The notes: generated by a model not told the origin, from the letters alone. 64,000 nt of DNA from Gammaproteobacteria bacterium (GCA_050183625.1 JBFXBD010000008.1:2521-66520), one strand, 5' to 3'. Numbered from the stretch's first letter, positions 12,152 to 56,288 are shown. Made by a program: numbers and translations.

Positions 12152-12161
12152 CGGTGCGCGG

Positions 12162-13810: not shown

Positions 13811-13999
13811 GGTGACAATCGTTTGCGGTTGGTCGTGTCGGGCAGTGGCGGGGACCCTGGCGGGCTGAGCCGCCGCCCGGCCGTGGGCGATTCGACGCCG
13901 CCCGTCGCGCGGGGCTGCCCGCCGGTCGGTGGTTGCGGCGCCGCAACGGGGCGCTCACTATAATGGAGCCCAGGACTAGCGGCAAAGGACGAGCGTGCC

Positions 14000-14710: not shown

Positions 14711-14744
14711 TCGGCCCCGCCTATCGCCGGAACAGGCGGTCGTC

Positions 14745-15323: not shown

Positions 15324-15380
15324 GCAACGCCGCGTGGATGAATGCAGTTCCCGCATGCGTCCAGGGGTGAAGCCGGCATC

Positions 15381-15956: not shown

Positions 15957-15986
15957 GATCCCGCCCACGCCGTGCGTGGTGGGCGT

Positions 15987-16754: not shown

Positions 16755-16764
16755 CGCCCGATTA

Positions 16765-16858
16765 TATTCCGGTGCCAGGCACCGGAAAAAGCTGTGGACG
16801 ACTTATCCAGGTGCCTGGCACCGGAAAAAGTCTGGTGCCAGGCACGTGGATAAGTGGG
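16765..16858. promoter_or_regulatory. cluster of three GGTGCC(A/T)GGCACC palindromes plus long inverted repeat (ACTTATCCAGGTGCCTGGCAC ... GTGCCAGGCACGTGGATAAGT); candidate operator/terminator between ABC operon end and gloB start
   Basis: Read directly from the sequence. On the gloB-sense strand a TATAAT lies 7 nt upstream of the gloB ATG, next to the last palindrome. Confidence 0.5.
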
Positions 16859-16859
16859 G

Positions 16860-17960
16860 TCAATCGAGGCGTTTGCGGAAGCGCAGGACGGCGACGGCGA
16901 GCATGGCGATGGCGAACAGGGCCAGGGCACGGATCTCCGAAGCGAGCGTGGACAGATCGGCGCCGCGCAGGATGATGCCGCGCGTGAGCCGCACGAAATG
17001 GGTGAGCGGCAGCACCTCGGCGAACCAGCGCGCCAGCCGCGGCATGCCGTCGAACGGAAACATGAAGCCGGACAGCAGGATCGACGGCAGGTACACGAAC
17101 ATCGTCAGCTGGATCGCCTGGAACTGGCTGCGCGCAAGCGTGGAAATCACCAGCCCCATGGTCAGGCTGGCGGCGATGAACACCAGCGAGGCGGCGTAGA
17201 TGTCACCATAGGTGCCGGCGATCGGCACCTGGAAGATCCACAGCCCCGCGGCGACGATAAGCGAGACCTGTACCAGGCCGATGAGCACGTAGGGGATGAT
17301 CTTGCCCAGCATCAGCTCCAGGCTGCTCACCGGCGTCATGATGAGCAATTCGAGATTGCCGCGCTCGCGCTCGCGCACCAGCGCCACCGCGGTGAACAGG
17401 ATCATCGTCATCGACAGGATCACGCCGATGAGCGCCGGTACCACGAACACCGCCGATCGTCGCTCCGGATTGAAATAGTTGCGCACCTCGAGCAGTGGCT
17501 GGCGCGTGGCGGTCTCGGGCGGGTGGCCGCGCGCAAGCTCGATCTCGGCCAGACGCCGGGCGACGCCGAGCACGGTCGGGTCCGACCCGTCCACCAGGAT
17601 CTGCGCCGCCGGCCGGTCGCCACGCAGCACACGGCGGTCGAAATCCGGCGGGAAATACAGCCCCACGGTAATCTCCCCGCGCTGCAACAACGCCTCCAGC
17701 TCGGCCGGCCCGGCCACCCGTGCGCGGATGTCGACGATCTGCGAGGCCTGCGCGTCGGCGGCGAGCGTGCGCGAGAGCTGGGTACCGGCCTGATCGGCCA
17801 CCGCCGCGTGCAGGTGGCGCACGTCCAGGTTGATCGCGAACCCGAACAGCAGCACCTGGATCAGCGGGATGCCGATCATCATGCCGAAGGTGAGCCGGTC
17901 GCGGGCGAGCTGCAGCACCTCCTTGTACATGATCGCGAACAGGCGCGCGGCCGAGATCAC
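16860..17960 (-). CDS. ABC-2 type transporter permease (YhhJ-like)
   Basis: 366 aa. N-terminal MYKEVLQLARDRLTFGMMIGIPL typical of ABC-2 permeases, 6 TM. Overlaps the ATPase stop by 4 nt. Confidence 0.8.
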   Translation of the reverse strand: MISAARLFAIMYKEVLQLARDRLTFGMMIGIPLIQVLLFGFAINLDVRHLHAAVADQAGTQLSRTLAADAQASQIVDIRARVAGPAELEALLQRGEITVGLYFPPDFDRRVLRGDRPAAQILVDGSDPTVLGVARRLAEIELARGHPPETATRQPLLEVRNYFNPERRSAVFVVPALIGVILSMTMILFTAVALVRERERGNLELLIMTPVSSLELMLGKIIPYVLIGLVQVSLIVAAGLWIFQVPIAGTYGDIYAASLVFIAASLTMGLVISTLARSQFQAIQLTMFVYLPSILLSGFMFPFDGMPRLARWFAEVLPLTHFVRLTRGIILRGADLSTLASEIRALALFAIAMLAVAVLRFRKRLD

Positions 17961-18904
17961 GGCGAATTCTCCTTGTGTCGGCGGCGGGTGACGGCGACGA
18001 ACACGTCCTCCAGGTTCGGCGCCGCCACACTCGCCTGCCCGTCCACGTGCGAGGCGTCGAGCGCGCGGCGCACGCAGGCCACGGGGTCGGGCTCGTGCAG
18101 ATCCACCAGCACCCGCAGCCGCACGCCGAGCTGGGTCACGCCCAGGATGCCAGGCCGGTGGTCCAGCGCCGAGATCGCGGCGCGCGGTTGCGCGCTGCGG
18201 AACTCCACCACCGTCGCGCCGATCCGCGCCTCCAATGCCTGTGGCGTGCCATCGGCGACGAGCGCGCCGCGATCCAGGATCGCCAGCCCGTGGCAGCGCT
18301 CGGCCTCGTCCATGTAGTGCGTGGAAACCAGGATCGTCACCCCGCTCTCGGCGAGCTCGAACAGGGTGTCCCAGAAGTCCCGCCGGCTCTGCGGATCCAC
18401 CGCGCTGGTCGGCTCGTCCAGGAACAGCAGCCGCGGCCGGTGCAGGATCGAAGCCGCGAGCGCCAGGCGCTGCCGCTGCCCGCCGGATAGGGTGCCTGCG
18501 CGCTGCGAGGCGCGATCTACGAGCGCGAACTGTTCCAGCAACTCATCCACGCGCGGCCGGCGCAGCCGGCGCGGCAGGTCGTAGACCCGGGCGATGAACT
18601 CCAGGTTCTCGCGCACGCTGAGATCCTCGTACAGCGAAAAGCGCTGCGTCATGTAGCCCACCTCGCGCTTGACCGCTTCCTCCTGGCCGGGAATGCGATG
18701 GCCGAGCACCTCGGCCTCGCCTTCGCTCGGCACGAGCAGGCCGCACAACATGCGGATGGTGGTCGACTTGCCCGAGCCGTTCGGCCCGAGGAAGCCGTAG
18801 ATCGACGCACGCGGGATCGCCAGGTCGACCCGGTTCACCGCCAGCGTCCGGCCGAAGCGACGCGACAGGCCGCGGGTACGGATCGCGCAGTCGGCCGGGT
18901 TCAC
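17957..18904 (-). CDS. ABC transporter ATP-binding protein
   Basis: Walker A GPNGSGKST, signature [12 protein letters not shown], Walker B LLFLDEP. Confidence 0.85.
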   Translation of the reverse strand: MNPADCAIRTRGLSRRFGRTLAVNRVDLAIPRASIYGFLGPNGSGKSTTIRMLCGLLVPSEGEAEVLGHRIPGQEEAVKREVGYMTQRFSLYEDLSVRENLEFIARVYDLPRRLRRPRVDELLEQFALVDRASQRAGTLSGGQRQRLALAASILHRPRLLFLDEPTSAVDPQSRRDFWDTLFELAESGVTILVSTHYMDEAERCHGLAILDRGALVADGTPQALEARIGATVVEFRSAQPRAAISALDHRPGILGVTQLGVRLRVLVDLHEPDPVACVRRALDASHVDGQASVAAPNLEDVFVAVTRRRHKENSP

Positions 18905-19887
18905 CGAACCGGCGCCGCGGGCGCGTCGAAGTGCGCCACCACCGGAACGCCGGCCGGCAGCGCCCGGTCAGCGCTGACGAGGTCAATTTCAGCGACGTAC
19001 GTCACCCGGCCGCGGTCGCGCTCGGTGAGCGCGAAGTAGGGCGTGAAGGTCGACTCGGAGGCGATCGTGCGCACGCGGCCGCGCAGCGGGGCGGGCAATC
19101 CGTCGACGCTCACGCTGGCCGCGCTGCCCGGCCGCACCTGGACGCGGATCAGCTCGGGCACGTACACGCGCGCATAGGGCCGGGCACCGTCGAGCAGAAC
19201 CGCCACGATCTCGCCGACGCGCGGTTGCTCGCCCTGCTTCAGGGGCAGGCTATCCACGCGTGCGGGGCGCGGTGCCCGGATCGTCATCCGCTCGAGATCG
19301 ATCCGCAGCCGCCGCACCGCCGCAGCGGCGGCCTCGGCCGCATGCCGCGCCTGCGCGATTTCCTCCGCGGTGGCGCCGTGTTCGGCTTCTTCCAGCAGCG
19401 CGTGGGCGGCGTCGCGATCCGCGCGCGCTGCGTCGCGTACGGCGCGGGCGCGGTCCACGTCTTCGGCGCTCGCCAGGCGCCGGCCGACCAGCGCCGCCAC
19501 GCGTGCGAGTTCGCGTTCGCGTGCCGCCAGCACGCGCGTGGCGCCCTCGGCGCGCGAACGCGCCTCGACGATGCGTTCCGTGCGTGTGCCGCGTTCGAGT
19601 TCGGCCAGCCGCGCGAGTGCCGCATCGCGCCGTGCCGATGCTTCGTCCAGGCGCGCCTGCACGCGCGTCGGGTTGAGCTTCAGCAGCACGGTTCCCGCGG
19701 CGACCATGTCGCCCTCGTGCACGGGGATTTCGACGATCGGCTCGGACTGCTCCGCGAGCATTTCGATCCGATCCCACTCCAGCATCCCCACCGCGCCGTG
19801 ATCCGGCGGCGGCGCGGTGCATCCGCCGACCAGCATCGCGAGTCCGAACAATGTCCGCCGCGCGGTCAGGCGCATCGCTGCGGCCAT
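18901..19887 (-). CDS. HlyD-family membrane-fusion (secretion) protein
   Basis: Start MAAAMRLTARR. N-terminal TM/lipobox-like LAMLVGGC. Long coiled-coil (RLAELERG...) followed by a beta-barrel C-terminus. Operon with the two ABC genes downstream. The ORF-track fusion to 21069 is spurious. Confidence 0.75.
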   Translation of the reverse strand: MAAAMRLTARRTLFGLAMLVGGCTAPPPDHGAVGMLEWDRIEMLAEQSEPIVEIPVHEGDMVAAGTVLLKLNPTRVQARLDEASARRDAALARLAELERGTRTERIVEARSRAEGATRVLAARERELARVAALVGRRLASAEDVDRARAVRDAARADRDAAHALLEEAEHGATAEEIAQARHAAEAAAAAVRRLRIDLERMTIRAPRPARVDSLPLKQGEQPRVGEIVAVLLDGARPYARVYVPELIRVQVRPGSAASVSVDGLPAPLRGRVRTIASESTFTPYFALTERDRGRVTYVAEIDLVSADRALPAGVPVVAHFDAPAAPVR

Positions 19888-19914
19888 GAACCGCCCCTTC
19901 GCCGTCGCTAGCGC

Positions 19915-20095
19915 ACCGACCCACGCGGGCTCGATGCTACCGGCAGCGCGTGGATTGCTTCGTCGCTTCGCTCCTCGCAATGACGGGGTGCGGTTCATGG
20001 ATAGGCCGCATGGCGGCCGCGGCAATCCAGGCGGCGTGGACGAATCCGGCGCTGCATGGGTCGCTTCGCTGCGCTCGCGACGACGATGGGGCGTG
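19915..20095. repeat. REP/MITE-like repeat, copy B
   Basis: Shares cagcgcgtggattgcttcgtcgcttcgctcctcgcaatgacggggtgcggttcatggataggccgc...gggtcgcttcgctgcgctcgcgacgacg with copy C almost base-for-base. Confidence 0.8.
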
Positions 20096-20099
20096 CGTG

Positions 20100-25660
<5,561 letters not shown>

Positions 25661-25664
<4 letters not shown>

Positions 25665-26194
25665 GGTCGCGGAGGAAGGGGCGGGCGGCGCAGGCCTTCG
25701 AAGCGCTGCTGCCAGTAGTCGTCGAGAAAGCTCGACACCATCACCCGGCCGGTGCGGGTGCTCGGCGCGTGGATGAAGCGATCCTCGCCCAGGTAGACGC
25801 CGACGTGCGAGTAGCGCGCGCCGCTGGTATTGAAGAACAGCAGGTCGCCGGGGCGGCGCTGCTCCGCCGGCAGGGGCGGCAGGCCCGCGGCAAGTTCATC
25901 CGTGCTGCGCGGCAGGTCGACGCCGAGCTGGCCGTAGATGTAGCGCACCAGGCCGCTGCAGTCGAAGCCGGTTTCGGGCCGCTCGCCGCCGTAGCGGTAC
26001 GGCTTGCCCTGCAGGCTGAGCGAATAGGCGAGCACGCCGAGCAAATCCGCGTTCGGCATCTGCAGCACGGGCGCAGGTGCGGGTGCCGGGGCGGGCGCCG
26101 GTGCGATCGGCGCACGCGCGCAGCCGGCCAGCAGCACGGCCAGCGCCGCGGCGACGGCGATCCGGGCGTGCCGGCCGTGGGAGCGATGGATCAC
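25661..26194 (-). CDS. NlpC/P60 (C40) family lipoprotein peptidase
   Basis: GTG start. Lipobox LLAGC. Catalytic [11 protein letters not shown] Cys and downstream His (YSHVGVYLG). (PA)n linker. Confidence 0.75.
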
Positions 26195-27777: not shown

Positions 27778-29106
27778 GTGCTTTCACGACAACTCGTCCG
27801 CGCCGCTGCTCTCGGCGCCGCCCTGATCGCCGCCCAGGCCCAGGCCTTCTGCGGCTTCTACGTCGCCAAGGCCGATACGCGGCTCTACAACCAGGCATCC
27901 AAGGTCGTGCTTGTGCGCGACGGCGACCGCACCGTGCTCACCATGGCCAACGACTACCAGGGCGATCCGAAGGAGTTCGCCATCGTCATCCCCACGCCCA
28001 CCGTGCTCCAGCGCGAGCAGATCCACGTCGGCGAGCCGGCGGTGATCGATCACCTGGATGCCTACTCTGCACCGCGCCTGGTCGAGTACTTCGATCCGGA
28101 TCCGTGCGCGCGCTTCGAGATGATGGAGCGGATGGCGCCGGCCGCCGGCGCGGTGATGTCGAAGGCGGCGCGCGACGATGCCCGCCAGCGCAGCCTGGGC
28201 GTGACGATCGAGGCCAGCTACACCGTCGGCGAATACGACATCCTCATCCTCTCGGCCACCCAGAGCGGCGGCCTGGTTTCCTGGCTGCGCGAGAACGGCT
28301 ACCGCCTGCCGGCCGGCGCCGAGCCGGTGATCGGCAGTTATCTCAAGCAGAGCATGAAGTTCTTCGTCGCGAAGGTGAACCTCGCCGAGCGCAAGAAGCT
28401 CGGCCGCTCCTACCTGCGGCCGCTGCAGATCGCCTTCGAGAGCCCCAAGTTCATGCTGCCGCTGCGGCTGGGCACGCTGAACGCGAACGGCGCGCAGGAA
28501 CTTTACGTGTTCACGCTCACGCGCAAGGGCCGCGTCGAGGCGACCAACTACCGCACCGTGCCGCTACCGAGCGATATCGAGATCCCGGTGGACGTGAAGG
28601 AGCGCTTCGGCGAGTTCTACAAGGCCATGTTCGACCGCGCCACGGTGCGCGAGGGCCGGCGCGGCGTGTTCACCGAGTACGCCTGGGACATGGGCTGGTG
28701 CGACCCGTGCGCGGCCGACCCGCTGACGCCGGCCGAGCTCGGCGAGCTGGGCGTGTTCTGGCTCGATGCCGCGCGCGATGCCGGCCCGGCACAGAACGTG
28801 TTCCTCACCCGCCTGCACGTGCGCTACGACGCCGCGCACTTCCCCGAGGACCTGGTGTTCCAGGAGACGGGCGACCGCAGCAACTTCCAGGCGCGCTACG
28901 TGTTGCGCCACGCATGGGAAGGGCAGGCGCGCTGCCCCGAAGCAGAGCGCTACCAGCGCGAGGTGCTGCCGCGCCGGCACGAGCAGCAGGCCCGCAACCT
29001 CGCCGAACTCACCGGCTGGAACCTGGACGACATCCTGCGCCGCATGCCTGGCGGCGTGCCCGCCGCTGGCGCGGACAAGTGGTGGGAGCGGCTCTGGAAG
29101 CAGTGA
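27778..29106 (+). CDS. DUF2330-domain secreted protein
   Basis: GTG after AAGGAG. Signal peptide AALIAAQAQA. Sequence pattern FCGFYVAKADTRLYNQ...VIPTP...YDILILSA characteristic of DUF2330. Confidence 0.7.
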   Translation: MLSRQLVRAAALGAALIAAQAQAFCGFYVAKADTRLYNQASKVVLVRDGDRTVLTMANDYQGDPKEFAIVIPTPTVLQREQIHVGEPAVIDHLDAYSAPRLVEYFDPDPCARFEMMERMAPAAGAVMSKAARDDARQRSLGVTIEASYTVGEYDILILSATQSGGLVSWLRENGYRLPAGAEPVIGSYLKQSMKFFVAKVNLAERKKLGRSYLRPLQIAFESPKFMLPLRLGTLNANGAQELYVFTLTRKGRVEATNYRTVPLPSDIEIPVDVKERFGEFYKAMFDRATVREGRRGVFTEYAWDMGWCDPCAADPLTPAELGELGVFWLDAARDAGPAQNVFLTRLHVRYDAAHFPEDLVFQETGDRSNFQARYVLRHAWEGQARCPEAERYQREVLPRRHEQQARNLAELTGWNLDDILRRMPGGVPAAGADKWWERLWKQ

Positions 29107-29422
29107 GCCGGGACGTTTTCCCACCCGGCCCGGCGGCCGCCAGCCATCGAGGCCGCCGGGCCGGGCACCCGCGCGCAACTGGGAGCGCCAGGTCACATCG
29201 AAAGGATGCACGCGGCCAAGCCGCGCACTTGTGTTCATGGATGCACCGGTGCGTACAATGGTCCGGACGCGACGAGACGGGCCCATGCCCCGCGACGGCG
29301 CGCGAAATCAAGCAGCCTCACCCGTGGCGGCGCCCCGATCGGACGCCGGCGGGCGCGTCGACCGCGCGAACGTTCCACGCCGGCGCGCACAGGCAGGACG
29401 CTCAATCGATGGGGGCAATCCA

Positions 29423-30733
29423 ATGAAGAAGAATGCGGCGCCGCAGTTGTCTTCGAGCTGGTGGAAGTCCAATCGGCCCGAAGATGTCGCCAGCGCGGAT
29501 GATCTCGACAAGGCACTGACGGCGTACGAGAAGGCGCTGGCGTCTTTCGCGAAGGCGCAGAGCACGCAGTCTCTGGCCGGCCTGGGCGAGGCGCTCGCCG
29601 GCGTCGAGGCGGCTGCCGAAAAGGTGGTCGCAGAGTGCGAGAAGGCGCTCAAAGGCAGGAAGACCAAGGTCGACGCGGAAGATGCGCAGAACACCGTCGA
29701 TGCGTTGAAGAAACTCGACAAGGTGATCGCCGCGGCGCGCAAGGACGCTGCCGGCAAGGTGAAGGAAGACGACGAGGGCGAGGAGGAGGATGCCGAAGCC
29801 GATGGCCTGCTGAACCAGGAGGAGCGGTACGGCAAGTACCTGCGCCAGGTCATGCGCAAGCTGAAGAATGCACCCATGGCCTTCGGCCTTGCCCTGGGCA
29901 AGAAGCCCGAACAGCACCGCATGCTGTTTCACAAGTCGAAGCAGGGCGAGGCGCTGGCGACCGTCGTCAAGAAGGAGACGAAGCTGACGGCCGTGACGTT
30001 CGGCGTGGCGGGCGGGCACGTGGAGCGGCCGAACGTGCTGGTGCTGAACCTGGACGGGCGGCAATTGCCGGGGCTCGGCAAGAAGTCCAGGGACTTCCTG
30101 AAGTACTTCAAGCCACTGCCCTTCGAGAGCGTCATGCTGATGAGCGGCGGCAAGGAGGTCGAGGACCTCCCGGACGTCGAGGAGGAGGACGCGGATGTCC
30201 CCGCGTCGCGCGTCTCCGAAGCCGACTTCGCGGCGCGGCTGAAGGCGCTGAAGCCACGGATCGACGCGGCGATCGCCGCGAAGGGACCGGTCGCGGACGA
30301 GGTGAAGCGTATCGCGGGCGAAGCCGCACTCCTCGGCCGCAAGAAGCAGTATGACGAAGCCTCGGTGCTGTTCGACGAGATCGACAAGCTGCTCGGAGCT
30401 TCCGGGGCGACCCCGGGCAAGGACCCCGCCGTGGGCGTCAGGCAGGCACTTTCGGCCTGGGATGCCGCGCGATCGAAGGTCGTCGCAACGTTGAAGGAAC
30501 TCGCGAAGGAGGTCGCGGCGGCCAAGCACCCGGAATCCAGGAACGCGTTGCTCGAATTGAACGCGGTGATGAAGCAACTGGCCGGGAACCCCGACACGGA
30601 GCAGAAGATCGCCGACATGGCGCGCTACCTGGAACAGGACGACGTCGTCGCGGACGTCTGCATGATGGCGCAGGACGTGCGCGCGCCGCTGATGCAGGCG
30701 CTGAACGAAATCAAGGCCAGGCTCGCCGCCTGA
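29423..30733 (+). CDS. hypothetical 437-aa Lys/Glu/Ala-rich alpha-helical protein (unknown function)
   Basis: ATG at 29423 after a GGGGG RBS. Clean ORF, lower GC than flanks. Amphipathic helical N-terminus, acidic D/E runs, central short beta-like segment (TFGVAGGHVERPNVLVLNLDG). No signal peptide. The 28766 upstream extension is spurious. Confidence 0.6.
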   Translation: MKKNAAPQLSSSWWKSNRPEDVASADDLDKALTAYEKALASFAKAQSTQSLAGLGEALAGVEAAAEKVVAECEKALKGRKTKVDAEDAQNTVDALKKLDKVIAAARKDAAGKVKEDDEGEEEDAEADGLLNQEERYGKYLRQVMRKLKNAPMAFGLALGKKPEQHRMLFHKSKQGEALATVVKKETKLTAVTFGVAGGHVERPNVLVLNLDGRQLPGLGKKSRDFLKYFKPLPFESVMLMSGGKEVEDLPDVEEEDADVPASRVSEADFAARLKALKPRIDAAIAAKGPVADEVKRIAGEAALLGRKKQYDEASVLFDEIDKLLGASGATPGKDPAVGVRQALSAWDAARSKVVATLKELAKEVAAAKHPESRNALLELNAVMKQLAGNPDTEQKIADMARYLEQDDVVADVCMMAQDVRAPLMQALNEIKARLAA

Positions 30734-30792
30734 CGCACGATGCGGGCCCGGCCGCCGGCCCGCTTCACCAGCAATGGATCGAGGGAACGCTC

Positions 30793-33591
30793 ATGGCCAG
30801 TAACAATCCCGTACCCAAGTCGAAGTTCGGCGTCGTCTTCCAGTACGCGCAGAGCGTGAAGTCCGGCGTGATCAGTGCGACTTCGATGGTGGTCGATTCC
30901 AACATCGCGCGCACGAACTGGCGCCAGGGGCTCAAGCTCAAGAACGTCCCGCACCCGGAGACGGACCTCGCCATCCTGCCGCCGGACTCGAAGACCCTGG
31001 CGAATTACCAGAACGCCAAGCGTGACTACGACGGCATCGATGCGACGCTGAGCGACATGGCGACCTCGAAATGGGAAAAGTTCGAGAAGGATCAGAAGAG
31101 CGCCGAGGCCGCGGTGGCGAACTTCGACCAGGCCATCGAGAACGCGCAGAAGGACATCGAGGCCGAGGTGGTCAGGCGCAGCAAGCTCCCGAACGAAATC
31201 CGCGCCAAGGTGACGCCCCCGCCTTCCGAGAGCGATGTCGCGCTGATCGCCAAGGAAGCCCCCGAACCCGGCGCGGTCTCCAAGGCCAGGGAGGAACTCG
31301 ACAGGCAACTGAAGGCGTTGATCAACGGCAGGGGCGACCCTCACGGGGCGTACGCGGTACTTGAAAAGAGCGCGCACCTGGCGGCCGGGGAGGCCGGAAA
31401 GGCGGTCGAAGCCCTCGCAAAGGCCGTGGAAACTGAAAAGGAGCGCCGCGCGAAAGCGGTCGAGGATCTGGAAGCGAAGCGTCCAGGCCTGCCGACCGGG
31501 GAGCAACTGGCCCTGCTTCCGGCGGACGACAAGGCCGGGGAGGCGTATTCCGGAGCGGGTGACACTGCCAGGAAGGCGATGCAGTCCCTGAACGATGCCC
31601 TGGCCAGGCCGTCGGACGAGTTCGCGAAGGCGCAGAAGACCGCGGCCAAGGCCGTCGAGGACCTGTCCGATGCCGTGTCCAAGGTCAACGATGCGATCCT
31701 GGTCGAAACGAAGCGCCGCCAGGAGAACACGCAATCGGTCCAGAACGACGCGCCGAAGAGCCGGGAACTTCCCGAAGGCGGTGGCATGCTCCCGGGCGAC
31801 CACAAGGCGGTCGCGGCTTTCGGAAGTGGGAATGAAGCGCTGAAGAAGGCCCTGGACGGGCTGGAGAAGTCCGCGAACGCCTCCTACGAGGACTACGAGT
31901 CCGCGTCGCAACTGGCGAAGGAATCGTTGAAGACCTGGAAGTCCAACGCCGATGCGGTCTTGAAGGCGGTGCAGACGGAAACCGATCGACGGCAGTCGGC
32001 GAGGAAGGGCGTGCTCGTTTCGTTCGACGTGGCGGAAACGAACGCTTCCGTGACCAGGAACGTCAAGCTCAAGGAAAGGTACACCACCGCGAAGGAGGGC
32101 TACCAGAAGGCGCTGGATGGGTTGGACCTGAAGATGAACGGCCCGGCGGCGGACTTCGAGGACGCATTCGGGCTGGCGCAGGGAGCGCACAAGAAGATCC
32201 AGCAGGAAATGTCGTCCCTCGCGGGTTCGGTGAAGGAACAGCTTGCCAAGGAGCGCAAGGAGCGTCGCGCGGCCCTCGACCCTGTGGAGAAGGCGCCATC
32301 GCAGCCCGAAGTCAGCCTGCTCGACGCGAACGACGAACGCCGCAAAGGCTACGAACGCCTGGTGACGGAGCACGGCCGCCAGGTGACGGCCTACGACAAG
32401 CTGCTGAAGAACGACCAGGCGAAGGAGGACGAGCTCAAGATTGCCGAGAACGCGGCGCTCGATTCGCGCAAGAACCTGGACGAGGCCTGCCTCGCCCTCA
32501 AGCAGGCGATCGCAGACGAGAAATCGAACCGGAAGGAGGTCTACGAGGAGCTTTCGGCGAAGATCGATCTGCCGGTCGAGGATGGTCTCGCGCTGCTACC
32601 CAAGGAGGATCAGGAGCGGTATCGCAAGGCATTGTCGGTTCACCAGAAGGGGCTGGCCGATCTGCAGAAGGTTGCGGACAGCGCTTCGGCGCAGTACCGG
32701 AAGGTCGAAGCGACGGCGCGGGAGGCCCGGAAAGCCCTGGTTTCCACGGTGAGCGACGTGGGCGAAAAGGCCAACTCGAAGTGGCTGGAGGCACTGCCCC
32801 GGTTCGTCGAGGAACTGGACGGCAAGCTGGAAGCCCTCAAGTCGGGCCTGCAGAAGATGGGCCACCGCAACGCGGATCATTACGGCAAGGTCGTGGACCA
32901 GGAGCGGGAACGGCTCAGGAACACCGACAACTACAAGTCCGTCCGCATCCAGTTCGAGAGATCGTTGCGGGATGTGCTGCAGCAGATGGAACTGGATCTC
33001 AAGGACGGGAAAATTGGGGTGGCGGCCCTCTCGGTGGAGAAGGTGCGGGCGAAGGAGGCCTATCCGAACATCGTCAAGTCGCAGGCGGTCGTCGTGGAGA
33101 AGATGATGTCGGATCTCAAGGGAGCCGTGCCGACCAGCATCGAGGACATCGAGAAGCTGCGCGTGGACTGCAACAGGAAGCTGGCGGACCTGGCCAAGGA
33201 CGTATTCGGCGCCACCGGGCAGAAGCTGCGTCCGCGCAGCTGGGTGGCGACGGCGGGCGCGACCGCCGGCAGGATGATGCCCACGGCGATGAAGCGCATC
33301 TCGCAGGCGCAGATCGACGAATCGGAACGCGTGTTCCGCGGCGCGGGCGCCAAGGAGAGAACCAGCCCGCGCCGCGGCTGGACCCACATCCACATCGGCG
33401 GCGACTACTCGGACAACCTGCTCCTGCACACCGGGACCAACATCGTCGTCGGCTTCCTCGGCCACATGAGCACCGCCTCGAAGGACAAGGAAAACGTCGC
33501 CGCGAGCGAAAAGCTGATGGACGACTTCGTGGAGGGAAATGCCGTGGCGGTCGCGATCCTGGGGCGGGACCTCTACGAGATCGAGGATTGA
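30793..33591 (+). CDS. hypothetical 932-aa alpha-helical repeat protein with distinct C-terminal ~110-aa domain (WTHIHIGGDYSDNLLLHTGTNIVVGFLGHM)
   Basis: ATG at 30793 preceded by GAGGGAA. Long uninterrupted ORF, reduced GC (~60%). Repetitive KA(V/L)E.L helical segments. Ser/Lys-rich non-acidic N-terminal ~35 aa. Confidence 0.65.
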   Translation: MASNNPVPKSKFGVVFQYAQSVKSGVISATSMVVDSNIARTNWRQGLKLKNVPHPETDLAILPPDSKTLANYQNAKRDYDGIDATLSDMATSKWEKFEKDQKSAEAAVANFDQAIENAQKDIEAEVVRRSKLPNEIRAKVTPPPSESDVALIAKEAPEPGAVSKAREELDRQLKALINGRGDPHGAYAVLEKSAHLAAGEAGKAVEALAKAVETEKERRAKAVEDLEAKRPGLPTGEQLALLPADDKAGEAYSGAGDTARKAMQSLNDALARPSDEFAKAQKTAAKAVEDLSDAVSKVNDAILVETKRRQENTQSVQNDAPKSRELPEGGGMLPGDHKAVAAFGSGNEALKKALDGLEKSANASYEDYESASQLAKESLKTWKSNADAVLKAVQTETDRRQSARKGVLVSFDVAETNASVTRNVKLKERYTTAKEGYQKALDGLDLKMNGPAADFEDAFGLAQGAHKKIQQEMSSLAGSVKEQLAKERKERRAALDPVEKAPSQPEVSLLDANDERRKGYERLVTEHGRQVTAYDKLLKNDQAKEDELKIAENAALDSRKNLDEACLALKQAIADEKSNRKEVYEELSAKIDLPVEDGLALLPKEDQERYRKALSVHQKGLADLQKVADSASAQYRKVEATAREARKALVSTVSDVGEKANSKWLEALPRFVEELDGKLEALKSGLQKMGHRNADHYGKVVDQERERLRNTDNYKSVRIQFERSLRDVLQQMELDLKDGKIGVAALSVEKVRAKEAYPNIVKSQAVVVEKMMSDLKGAVPTSIEDIEKLRVDCNRKLADLAKDVFGATGQKLRPRSWVATAGATAGRMMPTAMKRISQAQIDESERVFRGAGAKERTSPRRGWTHIHIGGDYSDNLLLHTGTNIVVGFLGHMSTASKDKENVAASEKLMDDFVEGNAVAVAILGRDLYEIED

Positions 33592-33758
33592 CGCCGGGAG
33601 TACCGCATCGCGATCCCGGCGTTCATCCGAGGCCACGGGCGTCGTCGAGGCGCGGCTCGGGGAGGCGGGCTTGGGCGGGGCACCGGCACCGGGCTGCCGT
33701 AGGTCATTGGGGTGTCGCCAGTAGCCTAGTGGTTCGGGGATGGCCGGACCCTTTTCCG

Positions 33759-34316
33759 ATGTTCCAACCCCTGGATGATTGCGGCTTCAGCCTGCCCCAT
33801 GCGGCCCTGTACGCCCAAATGACCCGGTGGTACCGTTTCCAGCCGGATGCCGTCCGGGTACACGCGAAGGATCGCGACGGCAGTACGCGGGTTGGCGTTG
33901 ATGGCGACATTCGCTACGAAGAGCCGATGCTGCTTGATCCAGTCGACGAAGACGATCCGGTCTTGCTCTTCTTTGACCTCGAAGGTCACGCAGTTGCGGC
34001 GCCACACGTCAACGAAGCCTGGGGGGCGACTCGCGTCCAGTATTCGGTCGATCGCTGCAACCTGGACTTCCCGCCACTCATGGACAAATGGAAAGCGGTC
34101 TGGGCAGAGTGCTGTAATCGTGTGACGGAGTACCGGCGGGAGCTTGGTTCGTACCAAAGGGACCCAACCAACGCCGTCGCGCGGGACCGCGTCAAGCAAG
34201 CCGCGAAGCGCGTGCGGCCGATGCTCCGGGAGGAACAGGATCTGTCTTCGATGGCCCGCGCATGCGTTGAGAGTGCCGGAGATCCATGCGTCGGCGGGTT
34301 TCCGCGGTCCGTATGA
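33759..34316 (+). CDS. hypothetical small protein (185 aa) downstream of the 932-aa gene
   Basis: Co-directional with flanking genes and ends 5 nt before the next gene's start. An ORF of similar length (33726..34337) is also open on the opposite strand, so strand assignment is uncertain. Confidence 0.35.
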   Translation: MFQPLDDCGFSLPHAALYAQMTRWYRFQPDAVRVHAKDRDGSTRVGVDGDIRYEEPMLLDPVDEDDPVLLFFDLEGHAVAAPHVNEAWGATRVQYSVDRCNLDFPPLMDKWKAVWAECCNRVTEYRRELGSYQRDPTNAVARDRVKQAAKRVRPMLREEQDLSSMARACVESAGDPCVGGFPRSV

Positions 34317-34321
34317 AGGCG

Positions 34322-35796
34322 CGGTCGAATTGATCACTCTTGCTACCCTTCAGTCGCTCGCTGCCCGCGGCGAGTCCGAGTCGCTCGAGTTCAAGCGCTC
34401 GACCGCCGAGCTGAAGCGCGCCGGGGAAACGCTCTGCGCGCTCCTGAACGGCGAGGGTGGCAAGGTGCTGATCGGGATCGGCCCCGACTGCAAGATCGTC
34501 GGCCAGGAGGTGTCAGACTCCACCCTCCGCGACATCGCGGCGATGCTCGGCCGCTTCGAGCCGCCCGCGCGCGTCGAGATGAGCCGCGTGGACATCGGGA
34601 ATCGCCGGCGGGTGATTGTGCTCGAGGCCGCTCCGTCCCGGCAGTTCGCACCATTCGTTTTCGAATCGAGGCCATACAAGCGCGTGGGCTCTACCACCAC
34701 GGTGATGTCGCAGGAGGAGTCCGCGCGCCTGCTTCTCGACCGCAATCACAGCCGGCACCGCTGAGAGAACCAACCGGCCGCGGGCGTGCGTCTCGAAGAT
34801 CTGGACCGCGAGGAGATCCTGCGCACGCGCGCCACCGCCATCGAGCAGCGGCGCCTCTCGGCCGGCACGAGCATGGACGTGGGCGACATCCTCGATCGGC
34901 TCGGCCTGCGAATGGACGGGCAGGTCACACAGGCCGCGCAGATGCTCTACGGGACGAAGTTCCTGCCCGACTACCCGCAGGCACTGCTCAAGCTCGGCCG
35001 CTTCCGGGGCAAGAAGATCACCGGCGATATCCTCGACAGCAAGCAGGAGTACCTGCACGCGTTCGCGATGGTCCGAGAGGCGATCGCCTGGCTCGACCGG
35101 ACGTTGCCGCTGTCTGCGCGCTTCCCGAAGGGCGCCGTCAACCGGGAGGATCGGTTGCCGGTGCCGGCGGAGGCGCTGCGAGAGATTGTCATCAACGCCG
35201 TCATCCACCGCGACGTGAGCAACCCGAGCTCGTACGTTGCAATCGCGGTGTTCGACGATCGCATCGAGATCCACAGCATTGGCGCGTTTCCGACCGGTAT
35301 TCGCGCCGAGCTGCTCGCGCGGGAGCACCGCTCGATCCCGCGCAACCCGCTCATTGCCGGCGCCTTCCATCGCACGGGCGCTATCGAGATCTGGGGCCGG
35401 GGTACGAATCGGGTCATCGAGGCGTGCCGCGCGTACGGCATCGCGGACCCGACGTTCACCGAGGCTTCGGGGGCCGTGACGGTGACGTTCAGGGCCGAGG
35501 TCCTGGCGGGGGCACGGGACATGGGGCCGGGTGGGCACCAAGTAGGCACCAAGTCGGCACTAAGTCAGTACCAAGTTCAAGTGCTTGAACTATCGGTTCT
35601 TCCTCGCGCACTGGCGGAACTCATGGGTCCCTCGGGACGATCCGATCGAACCAAGTTTCGGGACCAAGTTCTGCGCCCGCTGATCGAGGCAGGACTACTC
35701 GAAATGACCATCCCCGACAAACCGCGAAGCTCGAAGCAGCGGTATCGCATCACAGACGCCGGGCGTGAAATGTTGGTCGCCGCGAGCGGCAGTTGA
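34322..35796 (+). pseudogene. AlbA_2 (Schlafen-like) + HATPase_c_4 + wHTH 'RecG-like' putative regulator, interrupted by an in-frame TGA at 34762-34764
   Basis: N-terminal GESESLEFKRS (AlbA_2 hallmark). The downstream ORF is in the same frame (34144 and 34786 both frame 1), separated only by TGA + 7 codons. Combined length ~491 aa fits the family. TTG/GTG start uncertain. Confidence 0.5.
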
Positions 35797-36899: not shown

Positions 36900-37160
36900 A
36901 TGGCATGGCCCCGGCAGATTGCGGCCCTGAACCGCCCCTTCGTCGTCGCGAGCGCACGCGAAGCGACCCAAGCGGGTTCGATGCCGCCGGCAGCGCGTGG
37001 ATTGCTTCGTCGCTTCGCTCCTCGCAATGACGGGGTGCGGTTCATGGATAGGCCGCGCAGCGGCCGCGGCAATCCAGGCGGCCTGGGCCGAATCAGCGCT
37101 GCATGGGTCGCTTCGCTGCGCTCGCGACGACGAAGGGGCGGTTCAGGGCCACGATCGGCC
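36900..37160. repeat. REP/MITE-like repeat, copy C (composite ~260 bp)
   Basis: Same modules as copies A and B, with terminal inverted segments ccttcgtcgtcgcgagcgcacgcgaagcgaccc ... gggtcgcttcgctgcgctcgcgacgacgaagg. Confidence 0.8.
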
Positions 37161-37213
37161 GGGGTTGCCCCGGTTCCGCCCCGCGATGAGTTGCGTGCCG
37201 CACTGCACGGCCG

Positions 37214-43002: not shown

Positions 43003-44088
43003 TCAGTGTGGGTGGGTGCGGGCGGTCTCACCCTCCAGGTAGACCCGCGGCCGCTTCGGCCGAACCCAGACTTCTTCGCCCTCGCGCCACCCCGCCACCA
43101 ACCAGGCTTCGCGAGGCATCGCAGCCTCGATTTGACCGCCGCCGTCGTTGCGCTCCAGATCCAGGCGTACCTGGGCGCCAATCGGGCGTACGTCGCGGAT
43201 GCGGGCGGCAATGCCGCCCAGGCCGTTCTTTTCGCGTACCACCTCCAGCTCGTGCGGGCGGGCATAGACCAGCGCCGGGGTATCGTGCTGATCGTGATGT
43301 TCGTCGAGCGCGAATTCGAAATCGCCGATCTTTGCCCGCCCGGCGTGGATGCGGCTGTGGAACAGGTTGACGTCGCCCAGGAACTGATACACGAACGGCG
43401 TGGCCGGGTGCTCGTAGACGGCATCCGGCGTACCGAACTGCTCGACGGCGCCGGCATTCATCACCACGATCCGGTCGGCGACTTCCAGGGCCTCCTCCTG
43501 GTCATGGGTGACGAACACGCTGGTGACGTGCAGTTCGTCGTGCAGGCGTCGCAGCCAGCGCCGCAGCTCCTTGCGCACGCGCGCGTCGAGCGCGCCGAAC
43601 GGCTCGTCCAGGAGCAGCACGCGCGGTTCCACCGCGAGCGCGCGCGCCAGCGCGATGCGCTGGCGCTGGCCCCCGGAGAGCTGCGGCGGATAGCGGTCGG
43701 CGAGCCAGTCGAGCTGGACCAACTCCAACAGCTCCTTGACCTTCGCGTGGATCGCCGCCTCCCCGGGACGATTGCGGCGCGGACGCACGCGCAAGCCGAA
43801 GGCGACGTTCTCGAACACCGTCATGTGCCGGAATAGCGCGTAGTGCTGGAACACGAATCCGACGCGCCGGTCGCGCACGTGCTGGTGCGTCGTGTCGACG
43901 TCGTCGAACAGGATCCGACCGCCATCAGGCAGCTCCAGACCGGCGATGATGCGTAGCAGGGTGGTCTTGCCGCAGCCAGAGGGGCCGAGCAGCGCGGTCA
44001 GCTCGCCTTTGGGGATGTCGAGGCTGACGTCGTTCAGCGCGGCGAAGCTGCCGAAACTCTTCCGTACACCCTGGACCTTGATGCTCAT
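43003..44088 (-). CDS. cysA: sulfate/thiosulfate ABC transporter ATP-binding protein
   Basis: Walker [26 protein letters not shown]-terminal TOBE/MOP-like domain. Start overlaps the cysW stop. Confidence 0.9.
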
Positions 44089-44990
44089 GACGGTATCTCC
44101 TCGGATTGCTCGGCGGCCCGTACCTGGCGCTCGCGCAGGCCGCGCCACTCGACGATCGATTTCGCGATCAGGGTGACGATGGCCAGGCAGGCGAGCAGGG
44201 AGGCCGCGGCGAACGCGGCGGTGAAGTTGTATTCGTTGTAGAGGATTTCCACGTGCAGCGGGACGGTGTTCGTCAGCCCGCGGATATGGCCGGAAACGAC
44301 CGATACGGCGCCGAACTCGCCCATCGCGCGGGCGTTGCAGAGAATCACTCCGTACAGCAGGCCCCACTTCACGTTCGGCAGGGTGATGCGCCAGAACGCC
44401 GACCAGCCGCTGGCACCGAGCGAGATGGCCGCTTCTTCCTCTTCGGGACCCTGTTCCTGCATCAGCGGGATCAGTTCGCGTGCCACGAAGGGGAAGGTCA
44501 CGAAGATGGTGGCGAGCACGATGCCGGGTACCGCGAAGATGATTTTGATGTCGTGGTCCTGCAGCCAGTGTCCGAACCAGCCTTGCAGGCCGAATACCAG
44601 CACGTACACCAAGCCGGCAATCACGGGGGATACCGAGAACGGCAGATCGATGAGGGTGACGAGCAGGCTCTTGCCGCGAAAGTCGAACTTGGCGATGGCC
44701 CACGCCGCCGCGACACCGAATACGAGGTTCGCCGGCACGGCGATCAGCGCGGTGATCAGCGTGAGCTTCACTGCAGCGATGGCGACCGGTTCGGTGATGG
44801 CTGCGGCGTAGGGCCCGAATCCCTGGCGCAGCGCGTAGCCGAAGACGACGGCGAGCGGCAGCACCAGGAACAGGCCCATGAAGGCGATGGCGACTCCGAT
44901 CAGCAGGCGGCGGACCCAGGCGGGCTCGGCCAGTGCGGCCGCACGCCCGGCGGCACCCGGGGACGGCAGGGTCATGGTCGCGGATGTCAT
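44085..44990 (-). CDS. cysW: sulfate ABC transporter permease
   Basis: EAA loop region ([21 protein letters not shown]). CysW-like. Confidence 0.9.
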
Positions 44991-45000
44991 GTCGGCCTCC

Positions 45001-45840
45001 TCAATTCCGGCCGTGGCGTGCGCGTGCCCACCACTGCAGCAGGTTGATGGTCAGCAGCAGCACGAAGGAAACCACCAGCATCGCCACGGCCAGCGCGGTG
45101 GCGCCGGCGTAGTCGTACTGTTCCAGCTTCGTGATGATGAGCAACGGGGTGATCTCCGACACCATCGGGATGTTGCCGGCGATGAAAATCACCGACCCGT
45201 ACTCGCCCAGCGCGCGCGCGAACGCAAGCGCGAATCCGGTGAGCAGGGCTGGGTACAGGGGGGGCAGCAGCACGCGCAGGAAGGTCTGCAGGCGCGAGGC
45301 GCCCAGGCTGGCTGCGGCCTCCTCGAGTTCCGCCTCGAGATCCTGCAGCACCGGCTGCAATGTGCGTACGACGAACGGCAGGCCAATGAAGGTCAGCGCG
45401 ATCGTCACTCCGATCGGCGTGTAGGCGACCTTGATGCCCAACGGTTCCAGGAACCTGCCGATCCAGCCGTTCGGCGCGTACAGGGTGGTCAGCGCGATAC
45501 CGGCCACTGCGGTCGGCAGGGCGAACGGCAGGTCCACCAGGGCATCGAGAATGCGCTTGCCCGGGAACGAATAGCGCACCAGCACCCACGCCACGAGCAG
45601 CCCGAACACGGCGTTGATCGTGGCGCCGATTGCAGAAGCGCCGAAGCTCAGCCGGTAGGAAGCCAGGACCCGCGGCGCGGTGACGACGGCCCAGAACTCG
45701 CCCCAGGTCAGCGCGGCCGTGCGCAGGAACACCGCCGCCAGCGGGATGAGTACAATGAGCGTGAGGTACATCAGCGTATAGCCGAGCGCCAGGGGGAACC
45801 CGGGCAGTACGGAGTGACGCTTGAGCATGATCGGCCCCAT
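45001..45840 (-). CDS. cysT: sulfate ABC transporter permease
   Basis: EAA loop ([22 protein letters not shown]). CysT/CysU-like. Confidence 0.9.
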
Positions 45841-45844
45841 GGCT

Positions 45845-46894
45845 TCAGCGCGCCGGAAATGCGCCCGGGGTGTAGATCTGGTCGAAGATGCCGCCGTCGC
45901 TGAAATGCGTCTCCTGCGCCTTCTTCCAGCCGCCGAACTCCGCGATCGTCACCAGGTCCAGCGCGGGAAACCGGTCGGCGTACTTCGCGGCCACCTCGGG
46001 ATTTCGCGGGCGATAGAAGTGCTTCGCCGCGAGCTCCTGGCCTTCCGGAGAATACAGGTACTCCAGGTAGGCCTTGGCAACGGTCGCGGTGCCGCGTCGC
46101 TGCGCGACCCGCTCGACCACGGTGACCGGCGGCTCGGCAAGGATCGACAGCGAGGGAACGACGACCTGGAATTTGCCCTCGCCGAACTCCTTGTTCACGA
46201 GAAATGCCTCGTTTTCCCAAGTGATGAGTACATCACCGATGCCGCGTTCAGCGAACGTGGTGGTCGAGCCGCGCGCGCCGGAGTCGAGCACTGCGGCGTT
46301 CTTGAAGAGCCTGGCCACCATGTCGCGCGCGGCGGCATCGCTGCCGAACTTCTTCTTCGCGAACGCCCACGCCGCCAGGTAGTTCCAGCGCGCACCGCCG
46401 GACGTCTTGGGGTTCGGCGTAATGACCGACACGCCTGGCCTGGCGAGGTCATCCCAGTCCTTGATGCCTTTGGGATTGCCGGCCCGCACGAGGAACACGA
46501 TCGTGGAAGTGTAGGGCGCGCTGTTCTGCGGCAACTTGGACTGCCAGTCCTTGGTGATGAGGCCGCCCTTCTCGAACAGCACGTCGATGTCGTAGGCGAG
46601 CGCCAGGGTGACGACGTCGGCTTCCAGGCCGTCGATTACCGAGCGCGCCTGCTTGCCCGAGCCACCGTGCGACTGCTGGATGGTGACCTCCTGGCCAGTC
46701 CTGCCCTTCCAGTACTTCGCAAACGCCGCGTTGTACTCCTGGTAAAGCTCGCGCGTCGGGTCGTAAGACACGTTCAGCAACGTCGTGCCTGCCGCGTGCG
46801 CGCTCGGGGCGTTGAGGAAGGCGGCCGCCAGCACGATGGCGGCGAGTGCTGCGAGCAGGGGTTCTCTGAAGCTGAGCGGAAATCGGGCGTTCAT
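45845..46894 (-). CDS. sbp: sulfate-binding periplasmic protein
   Basis: Signal peptide. [12 protein letters not shown] and [14 protein letters not shown] segments typical of Sbp/CysP. Confidence 0.9.
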
Positions 46895-46937
46895 AGCGGT
46901 ATCTCCAGTCGTTCGGTTTCGTTCGCGGTGCCTGCGG

Positions 46938-48392
46938 TCAGTACGAGACCTGGAACCGGGTCAGGAAGGCGTGCTCGGCGGGCCGATCCCGGCCGCCGGC
47001 GGCGCCGCCGGTGAAATTCGTGTTCTCATAGTTCGCTTCGAGGCGGTAGTTCTTGTTCAGATACCAGTTCACGCCCAATCCCCAGGACGACGCGAAGGTC
47101 GACGCCGTGGCGGGATTGGCGAAGATCGGAAAAGAGGCATCGTCGACATCGAGTTCGCCGTATCGGGCCACGAATTCCACCGCGCCCCAGGTGCCCTTCC
47201 AGGGGTCGAAGGGCGAATGCGGAACGATGCTCTTGTACGAGTTCTCCTCGCCGGTGATGACCCACGAGCCTGCCAGTTGCCATGAGTCGTGCTCGAGGGT
47301 GGCGCGAGAATTGCCGAGCTTCACGTCCTGGCCGGAAACTGCGTACTCGCCGAGCAGGCCGAACGATTTCCAATACCAGGTACCCTGAAGCGAGATGCGG
47401 TAGTGCGCGCCATCGGCGACTGCCGTCAGCGGAAGGGTGGCGCCGGTGCGGTAGCTGAAGAAGCTCTGTTGTGCCTGGCTGCGGTACGCGCCCAGATCGG
47501 TGCGCGCGAGCGTGCCGGTGCTGTCGCCCGCGCTGCCTGCGACTCCAAACGACAGCCCTTGCAGCGGCCCAAACACGTTCTTCCATGGCTGGAATATCAC
47601 GCGACCGGCGAACTCCTTGTCGTCGCCCACGTCGAGGTCGGCTGAGCCGCCGTCAGGCACGCCGTTGAAGTATCCCGCGGCGTAATTGACGATGCCGCCG
47701 AACAGGTCGCCGCCGACCTGGATGCCCAGGTCGCGATTCGGTACCAGGTTGGTCGGCAGGCCGCGCTCGACGAAGCGGATGTCGGTACCGGATTGCAGGC
47801 GTTCCAGGCCCACCGGCGGCTTGAACTTGCCGATGCGCAACTTGAGCTCGGGCAGGTAGTTCGCGTCCAGGTAGGCATCCTGCAGCGCGGTGGTGCCGCC
47901 GCCGAAGTCGGGCATGATGCGGAACCCGTAGTACTTGTACAGCGTTCCTTCGAAGATTGGACGTACGCGCCGCAGGACGAAGGTGTCGGCGAAGCTGCTG
48001 TTCACGTCGTCGTAGACGAAGCGGCCGTCGAACTGCGCGTAGCCGCGCAGCTTGAGCTGAAATGCCTGATCCGCGGAGGACAGGGCGAAGCCCTTGTCGC
48101 CGGCGGTGAGCACCGGCGTCTCGGCCTTCTTCTTCGCGGCGTCCTCGTCGGCGAGTTCGAAGCGCCGCTCCAGTGCGCGCACCTTTTGGTCAAGGTATGC
48201 GACCGGGGTTTCGGGTGCGGTGGCCACCGGCGCTGTACGTGCGGCCTGCAACTGCTTCTCGAGATCGGCAACCCTGGCCGCTAGCGCACGCACCTGCGCT
48301 TCGAGGGTCGCGTGCGCGGATGCGGCATGTGCCGCCGGAGTGATTGCCGCCGCGATGGCTGCGGCGAGCAGTGTCTGCTTCAAACGGATCAT
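46938..48392 (-). CDS. OprO/OprP-family anion-selective porin encoded with the sulfate transporter
   Basis: Signal peptide [24 protein letters not shown]-terminal coiled-coil then beta-barrel with Lys-rich segments. C-terminal F...QVSY typical of the OprO/P family. Confidence 0.8.
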
Positions 48393-48509
48393 GGTCCCAA
48401 CTCCCAATGAGTCGAAATGCGGACGTTTTTGGGGGGGGCCACCGGTGGTCCGGTCGGCGCCGGTCGTGTGCGCGTTCGGGGCGGATCCAGCAGACTGGTG
48501 TCCGGGCGG

Positions 48510-56272: not shown

Positions 56273-56288
56273 AGCGAGGGATTGGACC

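Follow-up and report, generated by a model that had tools for sequence, protein, structure and literature searches.

A lower-GC islet composed of two unrelated pieces

We analyzed a stretch of gammaproteobacterial DNA of 64,000 nt (GCA_050183625.1 JBFXBD010000008.1:2521-66520; the full 64-kb stretch is referred to below as the window) and concentrated on a lower-GC islet at positions 29423-35796, whose genes are named A, B, C and D in 5´ to 3´ order. An earlier note, made from the sequence alone, had proposed that the four form a single undescribed system. Its four open reading frames (ORFs) are present where it had placed them, co-directional and closely spaced on the plus strand: gene A (29423-30733), encoding 436 amino acids (aa); gene B (30793-33591; 932 aa), which begins 59 nt 3´ of A; ORF C (33759-34316; 185 aa); and gene D (34330-35796), which is split. 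The grouping into one system did not hold. Two unrelated pieces lie side by side in the islet: an A-B pair, in which A belongs to an uncharacterized family associated with type VI secretion system (T6SS) genes, and C-D, which is what remains of a different cassette, found intact at other loci. From comparison with homologous loci (L-numbers below; P-numbers denote relative proteins), A and B appear to constitute a small operon, a conserved and very rare pair, and not core genes.

The A-B-C layout is not a binning or assembly artefact, since an independent Logan assembly (L006) is 100% identical to the window over 28683-34471 and reproduces A, B, C and their junctions. This contig, from the same sample, begins within the DUF2330 gene upstream of the islet (28683) and ends within gene D (34471); the short-read assembly thus breaks on both sides of A-B-C, perhaps as a result of strain heterogeneity around the islet.

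Gene A belongs to a family encoded in or beside T6SS gene clusters

The start of A is supported by the observation that every homologue begins at the same MKKNA, and the extreme N-terminus is strikingly conserved across the family (MKKNAxPxL..WW). The composition of A (17% Ala, 10.8% Lys, 8.7% Glu), like that of B (13.7% Ala, 9.7% Lys, 8.9% Glu), agrees with the Lys/Glu/Ala-rich character described earlier, as does the lack of a recognizable domain, given that neither protein has a match in Pfam, NCBIfam, PHROGs or PADLOC. Pfam likewise gave no match for 19 A-family members, searches of PDB with sequences and profiles of the family returned nothing, no significant fold was found when a model of A was compared with PDB by Foldseek, and a search of A against phages was empty. 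The AlphaFold2 (AF2) model of A, with a predicted local distance difference test (pLDDT) score of 81, comprises an N-terminal three-helix bundle (aa 11-114), an alpha/beta core (aa 133-245; 29819-30157) and a C-terminal helical domain (aa 266-435; 30218-30727). Within the family, conservation is most widespread in the core, with its motifs F-G, HR, PGLKKK and KPLP, and the C-terminal domain is 43-46% identical to the matching region of the protein encoded directly upstream of the L011 homologue of B. A and B were also compared as possible paralogues and are unrelated. One paralogue of A is found in the same sample (L001/L002; P0004, AB7Q97_20810), with 51% identity over 83% of A, and is encoded between a LysR regulator gene and a convergent gene with no assigned family.

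The A family, which is undescribed, is strongly associated with T6SSs, its genes lying in or beside T6SS clusters at ~18 independent loci (L003/L004/L005, L009, L016-L023, L027, L030, L032, L033 and L036-L038). When a genome collection was scanned, T6SS core genes were found within 10 kb at 8 of the 10 A-family loci, and a metagenome scan added six further T6SS-embedded loci. Two A relatives, P0005 and P0006, are encoded between a PP2C phosphatase gene (PppA) and an OmpA-like gene, in clusters with TssJ, TssK, TssL, Fha, PpkA and a TssB-TssC fusion. Pfam assignments for L020 gave Hcp, TagJ, TssE, TssF, TssG, ClpV, a VipA/VipB fusion and VgrG. In cultured Eleftheria terrae, plasmid NZ_CP106952 (L027) carries a cluster with tssG, vgrG, DUF4123 and tssK genes, in which the gene for an A-like 'hypothetical protein', N7L95_RS26590, lies two genes past a sheath-like gene. 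The distance from the A-like gene to vgrG is 3-6 genes in L020, L027, L036 and L037. Thus, as expected of T6SS-associated genes (TAGs), the family recurs in T6SS clusters across taxa; the copy in the window is itself an orphan.

Further features of these clusters were noted. T6SS clusters with an A-like gene nearly always contain a gene for TssB (VipA) fused to an N-terminal part of TssC (VipB), with lengths of 594-1304 aa (L003 6710-8494, L016 17343-19265, L020 12461-15790, L027 7914-9692, and the 1304-aa form in L036/L037); in L016 and L020, the fusion is additional to normal tssB and tssC genes. Given this co-occurrence, the fusion and the A family may be functionally linked. Three A-like paralogues adjoin the T6SS of L027 within 11548-24762 (11548-12768; 18069-19466, minus strand; 21013-21402), followed by six consecutive RebB (R-body) genes at 23178-24762.

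Gene B encodes a very rare protein with a conserved, His-rich C-terminal domain

The B protein consists of a conserved N-terminal region of ~60 aa, six helical repeats of ~90 aa, each of which ends in E..RR (at aa 125, 215, 305, 396, 487 and ~575), a helical linker, and a C-terminal alpha/beta domain (aa 824-932; 33262-33588), which is a candidate catalytic or toxin domain. In an exhaustive HMMER search of 15 billion proteins clustered to 1.84 billion representatives, three relatives of B were found, two of 853 aa and one of 385 aa that shares the C-terminal part only; a word-indexed search, which was saturated by low-complexity words, had returned B alone and was superseded. The proposal that A and B are uncharacterized, very rare and not conserved core proteins is borne out by this count.

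The C-terminal domain is common to all four B-family members, among which 11 invariant residues were counted (including R856, H865, H867, G870, D871, N875, G887, G890, H891 and Y928), giving the motif H-x-H-x-x-G-D…N…G-x-x-G-H. An AF2 model of aa 690-932 (mean pLDDT 63, with 73-87 in the last ~110 residues) predicts helices followed by a domain of beta-alpha-alpha-beta-beta-beta-alpha-beta-beta order, and the domain looks catalytic. Pfam gave no match for the isolated C-terminal domains of all four members, sequence and profile searches of PDB with the B family and with this domain were empty, and searches of B against phages and plasmids returned nothing. The top Foldseek matches of the domain, which are weak, included RelE-like Cami1 (probability 0.44) and CdiA-CT NC101 (probability 0.35). 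Resemblance to the RelE/YafQ/BECR fold lies in the predicted strand-helix-helix-three-strand topology and in conserved His residues on adjacent strands, whereas the B domain has two extra C-terminal strands and no significant match to that fold. Assignment to RelE/YafQ was rejected, as hhalign against YafQ (sequence verified against 4ML2) gave a probability of 0.4%. We consider the RelE/BECR resemblance, with a compatible predicted topology and matches that are not significant, as a lead only.

A-family genes precede B and other large proteins that differ between loci

The two loci that encode full-length relatives of B, L011 and L012, each have an A-family gene directly upstream, 12 and 22 nt away, respectively; P0012, which has the B C-terminal domain, has no A-like neighbor. 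The co-occurrence across genomes that the earlier note had thought worth looking for therefore exists for A and B and does not extend to C, and neither C nor D was found to accompany B homologues in other loci. The genes that flank A-B differ at every locus compared, as do those that follow B, which are a PtuB fragment in the window, a convergent HEAT_2 gene in L011 and a convergent DJ-1 gene in L013.

Orphan A-family genes, away from T6SS clusters, are followed 28-59 nt downstream by genes for large proteins unrelated to one another, among them B in the window, a patatin phospholipase (L010), a 1254-aa ankyrin protein (L008) and a DUF4135 protein (L015). At the T6SS-adjacent locus L027, a 607-aa protein with no assigned family (RS26585) is encoded 220 nt downstream of the A-like gene N7L95_RS26590. 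Near-identical strains can differ at this position: L010 (2127) and L014 (6331) share 96% DNA identity up to a point 4 nt short of the A-like stop codon and then diverge, with the patatin gene present past this point in L010 only and a convergent histidine-phosphatase gene in L014. The earlier note had pointed to a layout of a large protein with a distinct C-terminal domain and then a small ORF; what recurs across relatives is a conserved gene followed by a large variable protein, and the small ORF, C, is not part of it.

Genes C and D are a remnant of a Septu-like cassette

C was taken to be domain-free and an immunity-like partner of B. We found instead that its homologous part (33873-34316, plus strand) corresponds to residues 123-269 of a 269-aa PtuB/TIGR02646 protein, with 76-78% aa identity to intact PtuB copies and the N-terminal 122 residues gone. 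Against the PADLOC PtuB1 model, C gave an E-value of 4e-23, covering model positions 149-270 of 283 only, and most of the 96 C relatives are 269-aa TIGR02646-type proteins that align to C residues ~40-185 only. A search of PDB with C was empty. Since the window is collinear with the intact cassette of L024 from residue 123 onward, C is a 5´-truncated ptuB. The first 38 codons of the ORF are not homologous to PtuB and fall within a 281-bp spacer of unassigned origin (33592-33872), which extends from the end of B to the start of the cassette homology; as judged from the alignment, C is the last 147 codons of ptuB joined to 38 unrelated codons that chance to open the frame. A minus-strand ORF at 33726-34337 was considered as the real gene in place of C and rejected, as it has no family match, whereas the plus strand matches PtuB with an E-value of 4e-23.

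For gene D, Pfam assigned AlbA_2, HATPase_c_4 and Fic-like_C domains, of which AlbA_2 is encoded by the first part (34330-34764) and HATPase_c_4 with Fic-like_C by the second (34786-35796). Both parts share one frame, interrupted by a single TGA at 34762-34764, so that the split described earlier is present. Over 485 aa, D is 81% identical to the intact 484-aa gene product of L024, in which the position of the TGA is occupied by Trp146 (TGG), corresponding to one TGG-to-TGA change. If this base call is correct, D is a pseudogene; the call is that of the window's own assembly, as the independent L006 assembly ends at 34471, before the TGA.

The region 33873-35765 of the window is collinear with L024 4809-6689, with 81% DNA identity over 1893 bp. 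An intact three-gene operon is present in L024, a Polyangiaceae metagenome-assembled genome, as well as in L025 and L026. Gene 1 (L024 1237-4446), common to all three loci, encodes a 1069-aa HsdR/PtuA-like protein, gene 2 encodes a 269-aa PtuB (PtuB1 E-value 7e-83, model positions 1-276 of 283), and gene 3 encodes a 484-aa AlbA_2/HATPase_c_4/Fic-like_C protein. In the 1069-aa protein, a type I restriction R-subunit-like region (PADLOC REase_I, positions 5-878 of 1170) is joined to no more than the last third of PtuA (327-525 of 527). No trace of gene 1 was found in the window by tblastn with this L024 protein as the query.

The likeness to Septu thus lies in the homology of C to the C-terminal 147 residues of PtuB/TIGR02646 and in the correspondence of D to the gene 3´ of ptuB in L024-L026. 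The differences are that the window has no ptuA, neither directly upstream of C nor elsewhere, that C is not full length and has no N-terminal half, and that D has all of its domains in a frame split by a stop codon rather than in a single ORF, which makes C-D a remnant and not a system. C-D is what is left, after decay, of the 3´ part of a Septu-like defence cassette gained by horizontal transfer, with the order PtuA-like ATPase, PtuB nuclease and Schlafen-like AlbA_2/HATPase_c_4 protein. The ATPase gene and the 5´ 122 codons of ptuB have been lost, and D, by the base call above, has gained a nonsense codon. By these sequence comparisons, C-D clearly appears to have been acquired horizontally, and the cassette is predicted to be non-functional here and to be linked to A-B by adjacency alone.

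Composition and edges of the islet, and other features of the window

The GC content is 64.95% at 29423-35796 and 69.5% in the remainder of the window. The islet is the minimum among 577 overlapping 6.4-kb spans, as would be expected from the earlier description, and the size of the dip is less than the ~60% versus ~70% given there. For A and B, the GC content is 0.40 at second codon positions (GC2) and 0.87-0.88 at third codon positions (GC3), compared with a GC3 of 0.90-0.94 in neighboring genes, and the dip in these two genes is mostly an amino-acid effect at second codon positions. With a GC3 of 0.70 for C and 0.81-0.86 for D, clearly foreign codon usage looks confined to C and D. Reduced GC is not peculiar to the islet, because a further lower-GC stretch (61-66%; GC3 0.82-0.85) is present at 44085-48509 on the minus strand, where an ABC transporter (two permeases and a solute-binding protein) and a phosphate-selective porin O/P are encoded.

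Pfam agrees with the flanks as they had been described, with RnfD-like and DUF2330 genes upstream and a PRMT-like methyltransferase gene downstream. A hairpin with a perfect 15-bp stem (29124-29165, plus strand) lies directly 3´ of the DUF2330 gene at the left edge of the islet and probably is the terminator of that gene. A second hairpin, over the B stop codon (33585-33628, plus strand), likely marks the end of the A-B transcription unit. A repetitive extragenic palindromic (REP) element had been named for this region; only ordinary hairpins were found, these two and one at 37135-37182. Scans for tRNA genes, Rfam matches and flanking direct repeats were negative, as was a promoter scan with respect to RNA or mobility features, and no integrase was found among the scanned genes adjoining the islet.

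Elsewhere in the window, a second small low-GC islet (55358-57044; ~58% GC) has two plus-strand ORFs of 304 and 251 aa, which we take to resemble TcmP (three-Cys-motif partner) and DUF5131/phage Gp37-Gp68 genes. A minus-strand ORF of 1931 aa (20100-25895), about twice the length of UvrA, matches UvrA_DNA-bind, UvrA_inter and several ABC_tran models and, from these matches, looks like a duplicated or fused UvrA-like protein.

Comparison of A and B with known T6SS components

The known T6SS adaptor and chaperone families are DUF4123 (Tap/Tec), DUF1795 (Eag) and DUF2169 (PMC7714669). Their hallmark is adjacency to a spike gene, vgrG or PAAR (PMC7714669), and the occurrence of an adaptor gene beside a variable downstream gene is the pattern by which T6SS adaptors have been defined and effectors found (PMC7714669). 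The A family resembles these adaptors in being encoded in or near T6SS loci, tightly upstream of unrelated large proteins that include a patatin, and in that near-identical strains can differ in the gene that comes next. A-family genes thus lie directly upstream of locus-variable genes, whose products are presumed effectors. The family differs from DUF4123, DUF1795 and DUF2169 in having no sequence or fold relation to them and in its size, ~430-600 aa with three domains, which is larger than that of these adaptors. A also is not beside vgrG or PAAR in the window, and its relatives are only loosely so; the adaptor role would be by analogy.

A comparison can also be drawn with TAGs of unassigned function (PMC13584744) and with TssW of Acidovorax (PMC12607579), given that the A family is a conserved part of T6SS clusters, where ppkA, pppA and fha are frequent neighbors. 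TssW, an accessory encoded next to ppkA and fha, is an outer-membrane protein that depends on Sec (PMC12607579), whereas the A N-terminus is hydrophilic, with no signal peptide or membrane segment evident by eye, and the model is that of a soluble helical and alpha/beta protein. TssW was considered as the identity of A and rejected, TssW being a Sec-exported outer-membrane protein. Nothing resembling A is described in the section on TAGs with unknown function in a 2026 review (PMC13584744).

B has the layout of modular T6SS cargo effectors, in that a long, repetitive spacer of helices separates its conserved N-terminus from a small C-terminal domain, also conserved, that is rich in invariant His, Asp, Asn, Arg and Tyr. 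It differs from them in having no PAAR, MIX, FIX or Rhs marker, no cognate immunity gene and no nearby T6SS genes, and its C-terminal domain matches no known toxin family. Polymorphic toxins have varying C-terminal domains, each with an immunity gene; the B family shows neither feature. The polymorphic-toxin/immunity reading of the earlier note fails because no conserved gene follows B and because the C-terminal domain is conserved among relatives.

A possible adaptor-cargo module, and alternatives to it

We favor the reading that B is the cargo of A, which would be a T6SS accessory of the adaptor or chaperone-like kind, and we put the probability of this reading at roughly 0.45. That A-B acts as an adaptor-cargo module is something we infer, at each functional step, from genomic context: A would link the large product of the next gene to a T6SS presumed to be encoded at another site in the genome. 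Delivery would then be of B, whose active part would be the His-motif domain. Because no conserved immunity gene follows B, it is more likely that B has a eukaryotic or other non-bacterial target, or an activity that is not toxic, than that it is a classical antibacterial toxin. In a more elaborate form of this proposal, which is speculative and which we hold to be rather doubtful, the A family would be an unrecognized modular class of T6SS adaptors for interchangeable large effectors, with a T6SS-facing N-terminal bundle, the alpha/beta core and a cargo-facing helical domain. B would then be a new effector family, in which six spectrin-like repeats present a catalytic domain of a new, His-based type, perhaps an RNase remotely akin to RelE/BECR, aimed, given the lack of an immunity gene, at eukaryotic or non-kin targets.

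Several observations weigh against an adaptor-cargo role. The link to T6SSs, which the earlier note had suggested checking, holds strongly for the A family and not for the window itself, as T6SS, VgrG, PAAR and Hcp genes are absent from the 64 kb, as well as from the 6-10 kb around the B homologues in L011-L013, and A does not show the adjacency to vgrG or PAAR that is the hallmark of adaptors. T6SS-embedded A-like genes are followed by genes that are small or look structural (for an OmpA-like protein, an ion channel or the TssB-TssC fusion), with no obvious effectors among them. No shared N-terminal loading region was found among the differing downstream proteins. No PAAR, MIX or other known T6SS effector marker was detected in B by Pfam, NCBIfam or PHROGs, and no conserved immunity gene follows B in the window or in the loci of its relatives. 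The model of the B C-terminal domain is only moderately confident, and its Foldseek matches in PDB are not significant (best E-value 0.32). The A family could instead be regulatory or structural.

Such a role would make A a TAG that acts in T6SS assembly or in post-translational control with PppA/PpkA/Fha and the TssB-TssC fusion, and B a non-secreted cytoplasmic helical scaffold or partner. The placement of T6SS-embedded A-like genes between the PppA and OmpA-like genes, near PpkA and Fha, their nearly constant proximity to the fusion gene, the finding that a spike gene is never directly adjacent to them, and the lack of an effector marker and of an immunity gene for B all are in line with this explanation. 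We nevertheless consider it unlikely, as orphan A copies away from all T6SS regulatory genes are tightly coupled to unrelated large proteins, the patatin phospholipase and ankyrin proteins found downstream are typical effector types, and the end of homology at the A-like stop codon of near-identical loci fits a swappable cargo better than a fixed partner. The position of A-B next to the Septu remnant raises another explanation, that the pair lies in a defence hotspot and works by itself as a toxin/antidote or abortive-infection-type module. The His domain of B would be a RelE/BECR-like RNase, restrained by A, which is encoded upstream as an antitoxin would be. Consistent with it are the conserved, tightly spaced order of a small upstream and a large downstream gene, the predicted beta-alpha-alpha-beta-beta-beta-alpha topology of the B C-terminal domain and its weak Cami1 and CdiA-CT NC101 matches. 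These matches are not significant, however (E-values 0.3-0.5), YafQ is not matched by hhalign, and neither A nor B has a PADLOC match. P0012 has the domain without an A-like neighbor, the A family is linked to T6SSs, and A is not a toxin-specific antidote, because the family, C-terminal domain included, precedes unrelated proteins. We regard this explanation as improbable.

Two further explanations appear very remote to us. That A, B, C and D make up a single undescribed system of the effector/immunity or polymorphic-toxin kind, on an island acquired horizontally, might be thought from their co-directional, closely spaced arrangement in the lowest-GC region of the window and from the distinct C-terminal domain of B. 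C-D, however, is collinear with a separate, intact three-gene cassette (81% DNA identity) and is truncated and nonsense-mutated here, neither C nor D lies beside B homologues elsewhere, the B C-terminal domain is conserved rather than polymorphic, and no integrase, tRNA gene or flanking direct repeats were found. It is hardly more credible that A and B are helical proteins with ordinary housekeeping roles, similar to phasins or apolipoproteins, with a GC dip that is only compositional. The GC3 of A and B is near that of host genes, with the dip arising from GC2, and the weak fold matches are generic helical bundles, including apolipoproteins and spectrin repeats; yet B has three relatives among the 15 billion proteins, the A family is sparse and T6SS-linked rather than syntenic core, and the flanking genes differ from locus to locus.

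Implications

What is new at this locus is the rare A-B pair, of which the first gene, A, belongs to an undescribed T6SS-associated family, whereas the C-D cassette is of a kind already known. Half of the islet is the wreckage of a known defence cassette and has no place in the description of a new system. B ends in a small, sharply conserved domain that is rich in His and has no match in Pfam or PDB. Should the A family prove to be adaptor-like in T6SSs, it would provide a new marker gene for effector discovery by guilt by association, as DUF4123, DUF1795 and DUF2169 do, and the candidate effectors to which it points would include the B family, the 607-aa Eleftheria protein and the DUF4135 and ankyrin proteins. 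With three A-like copies beside a T6SS in cultured Eleftheria terrae, this idea is directly testable.

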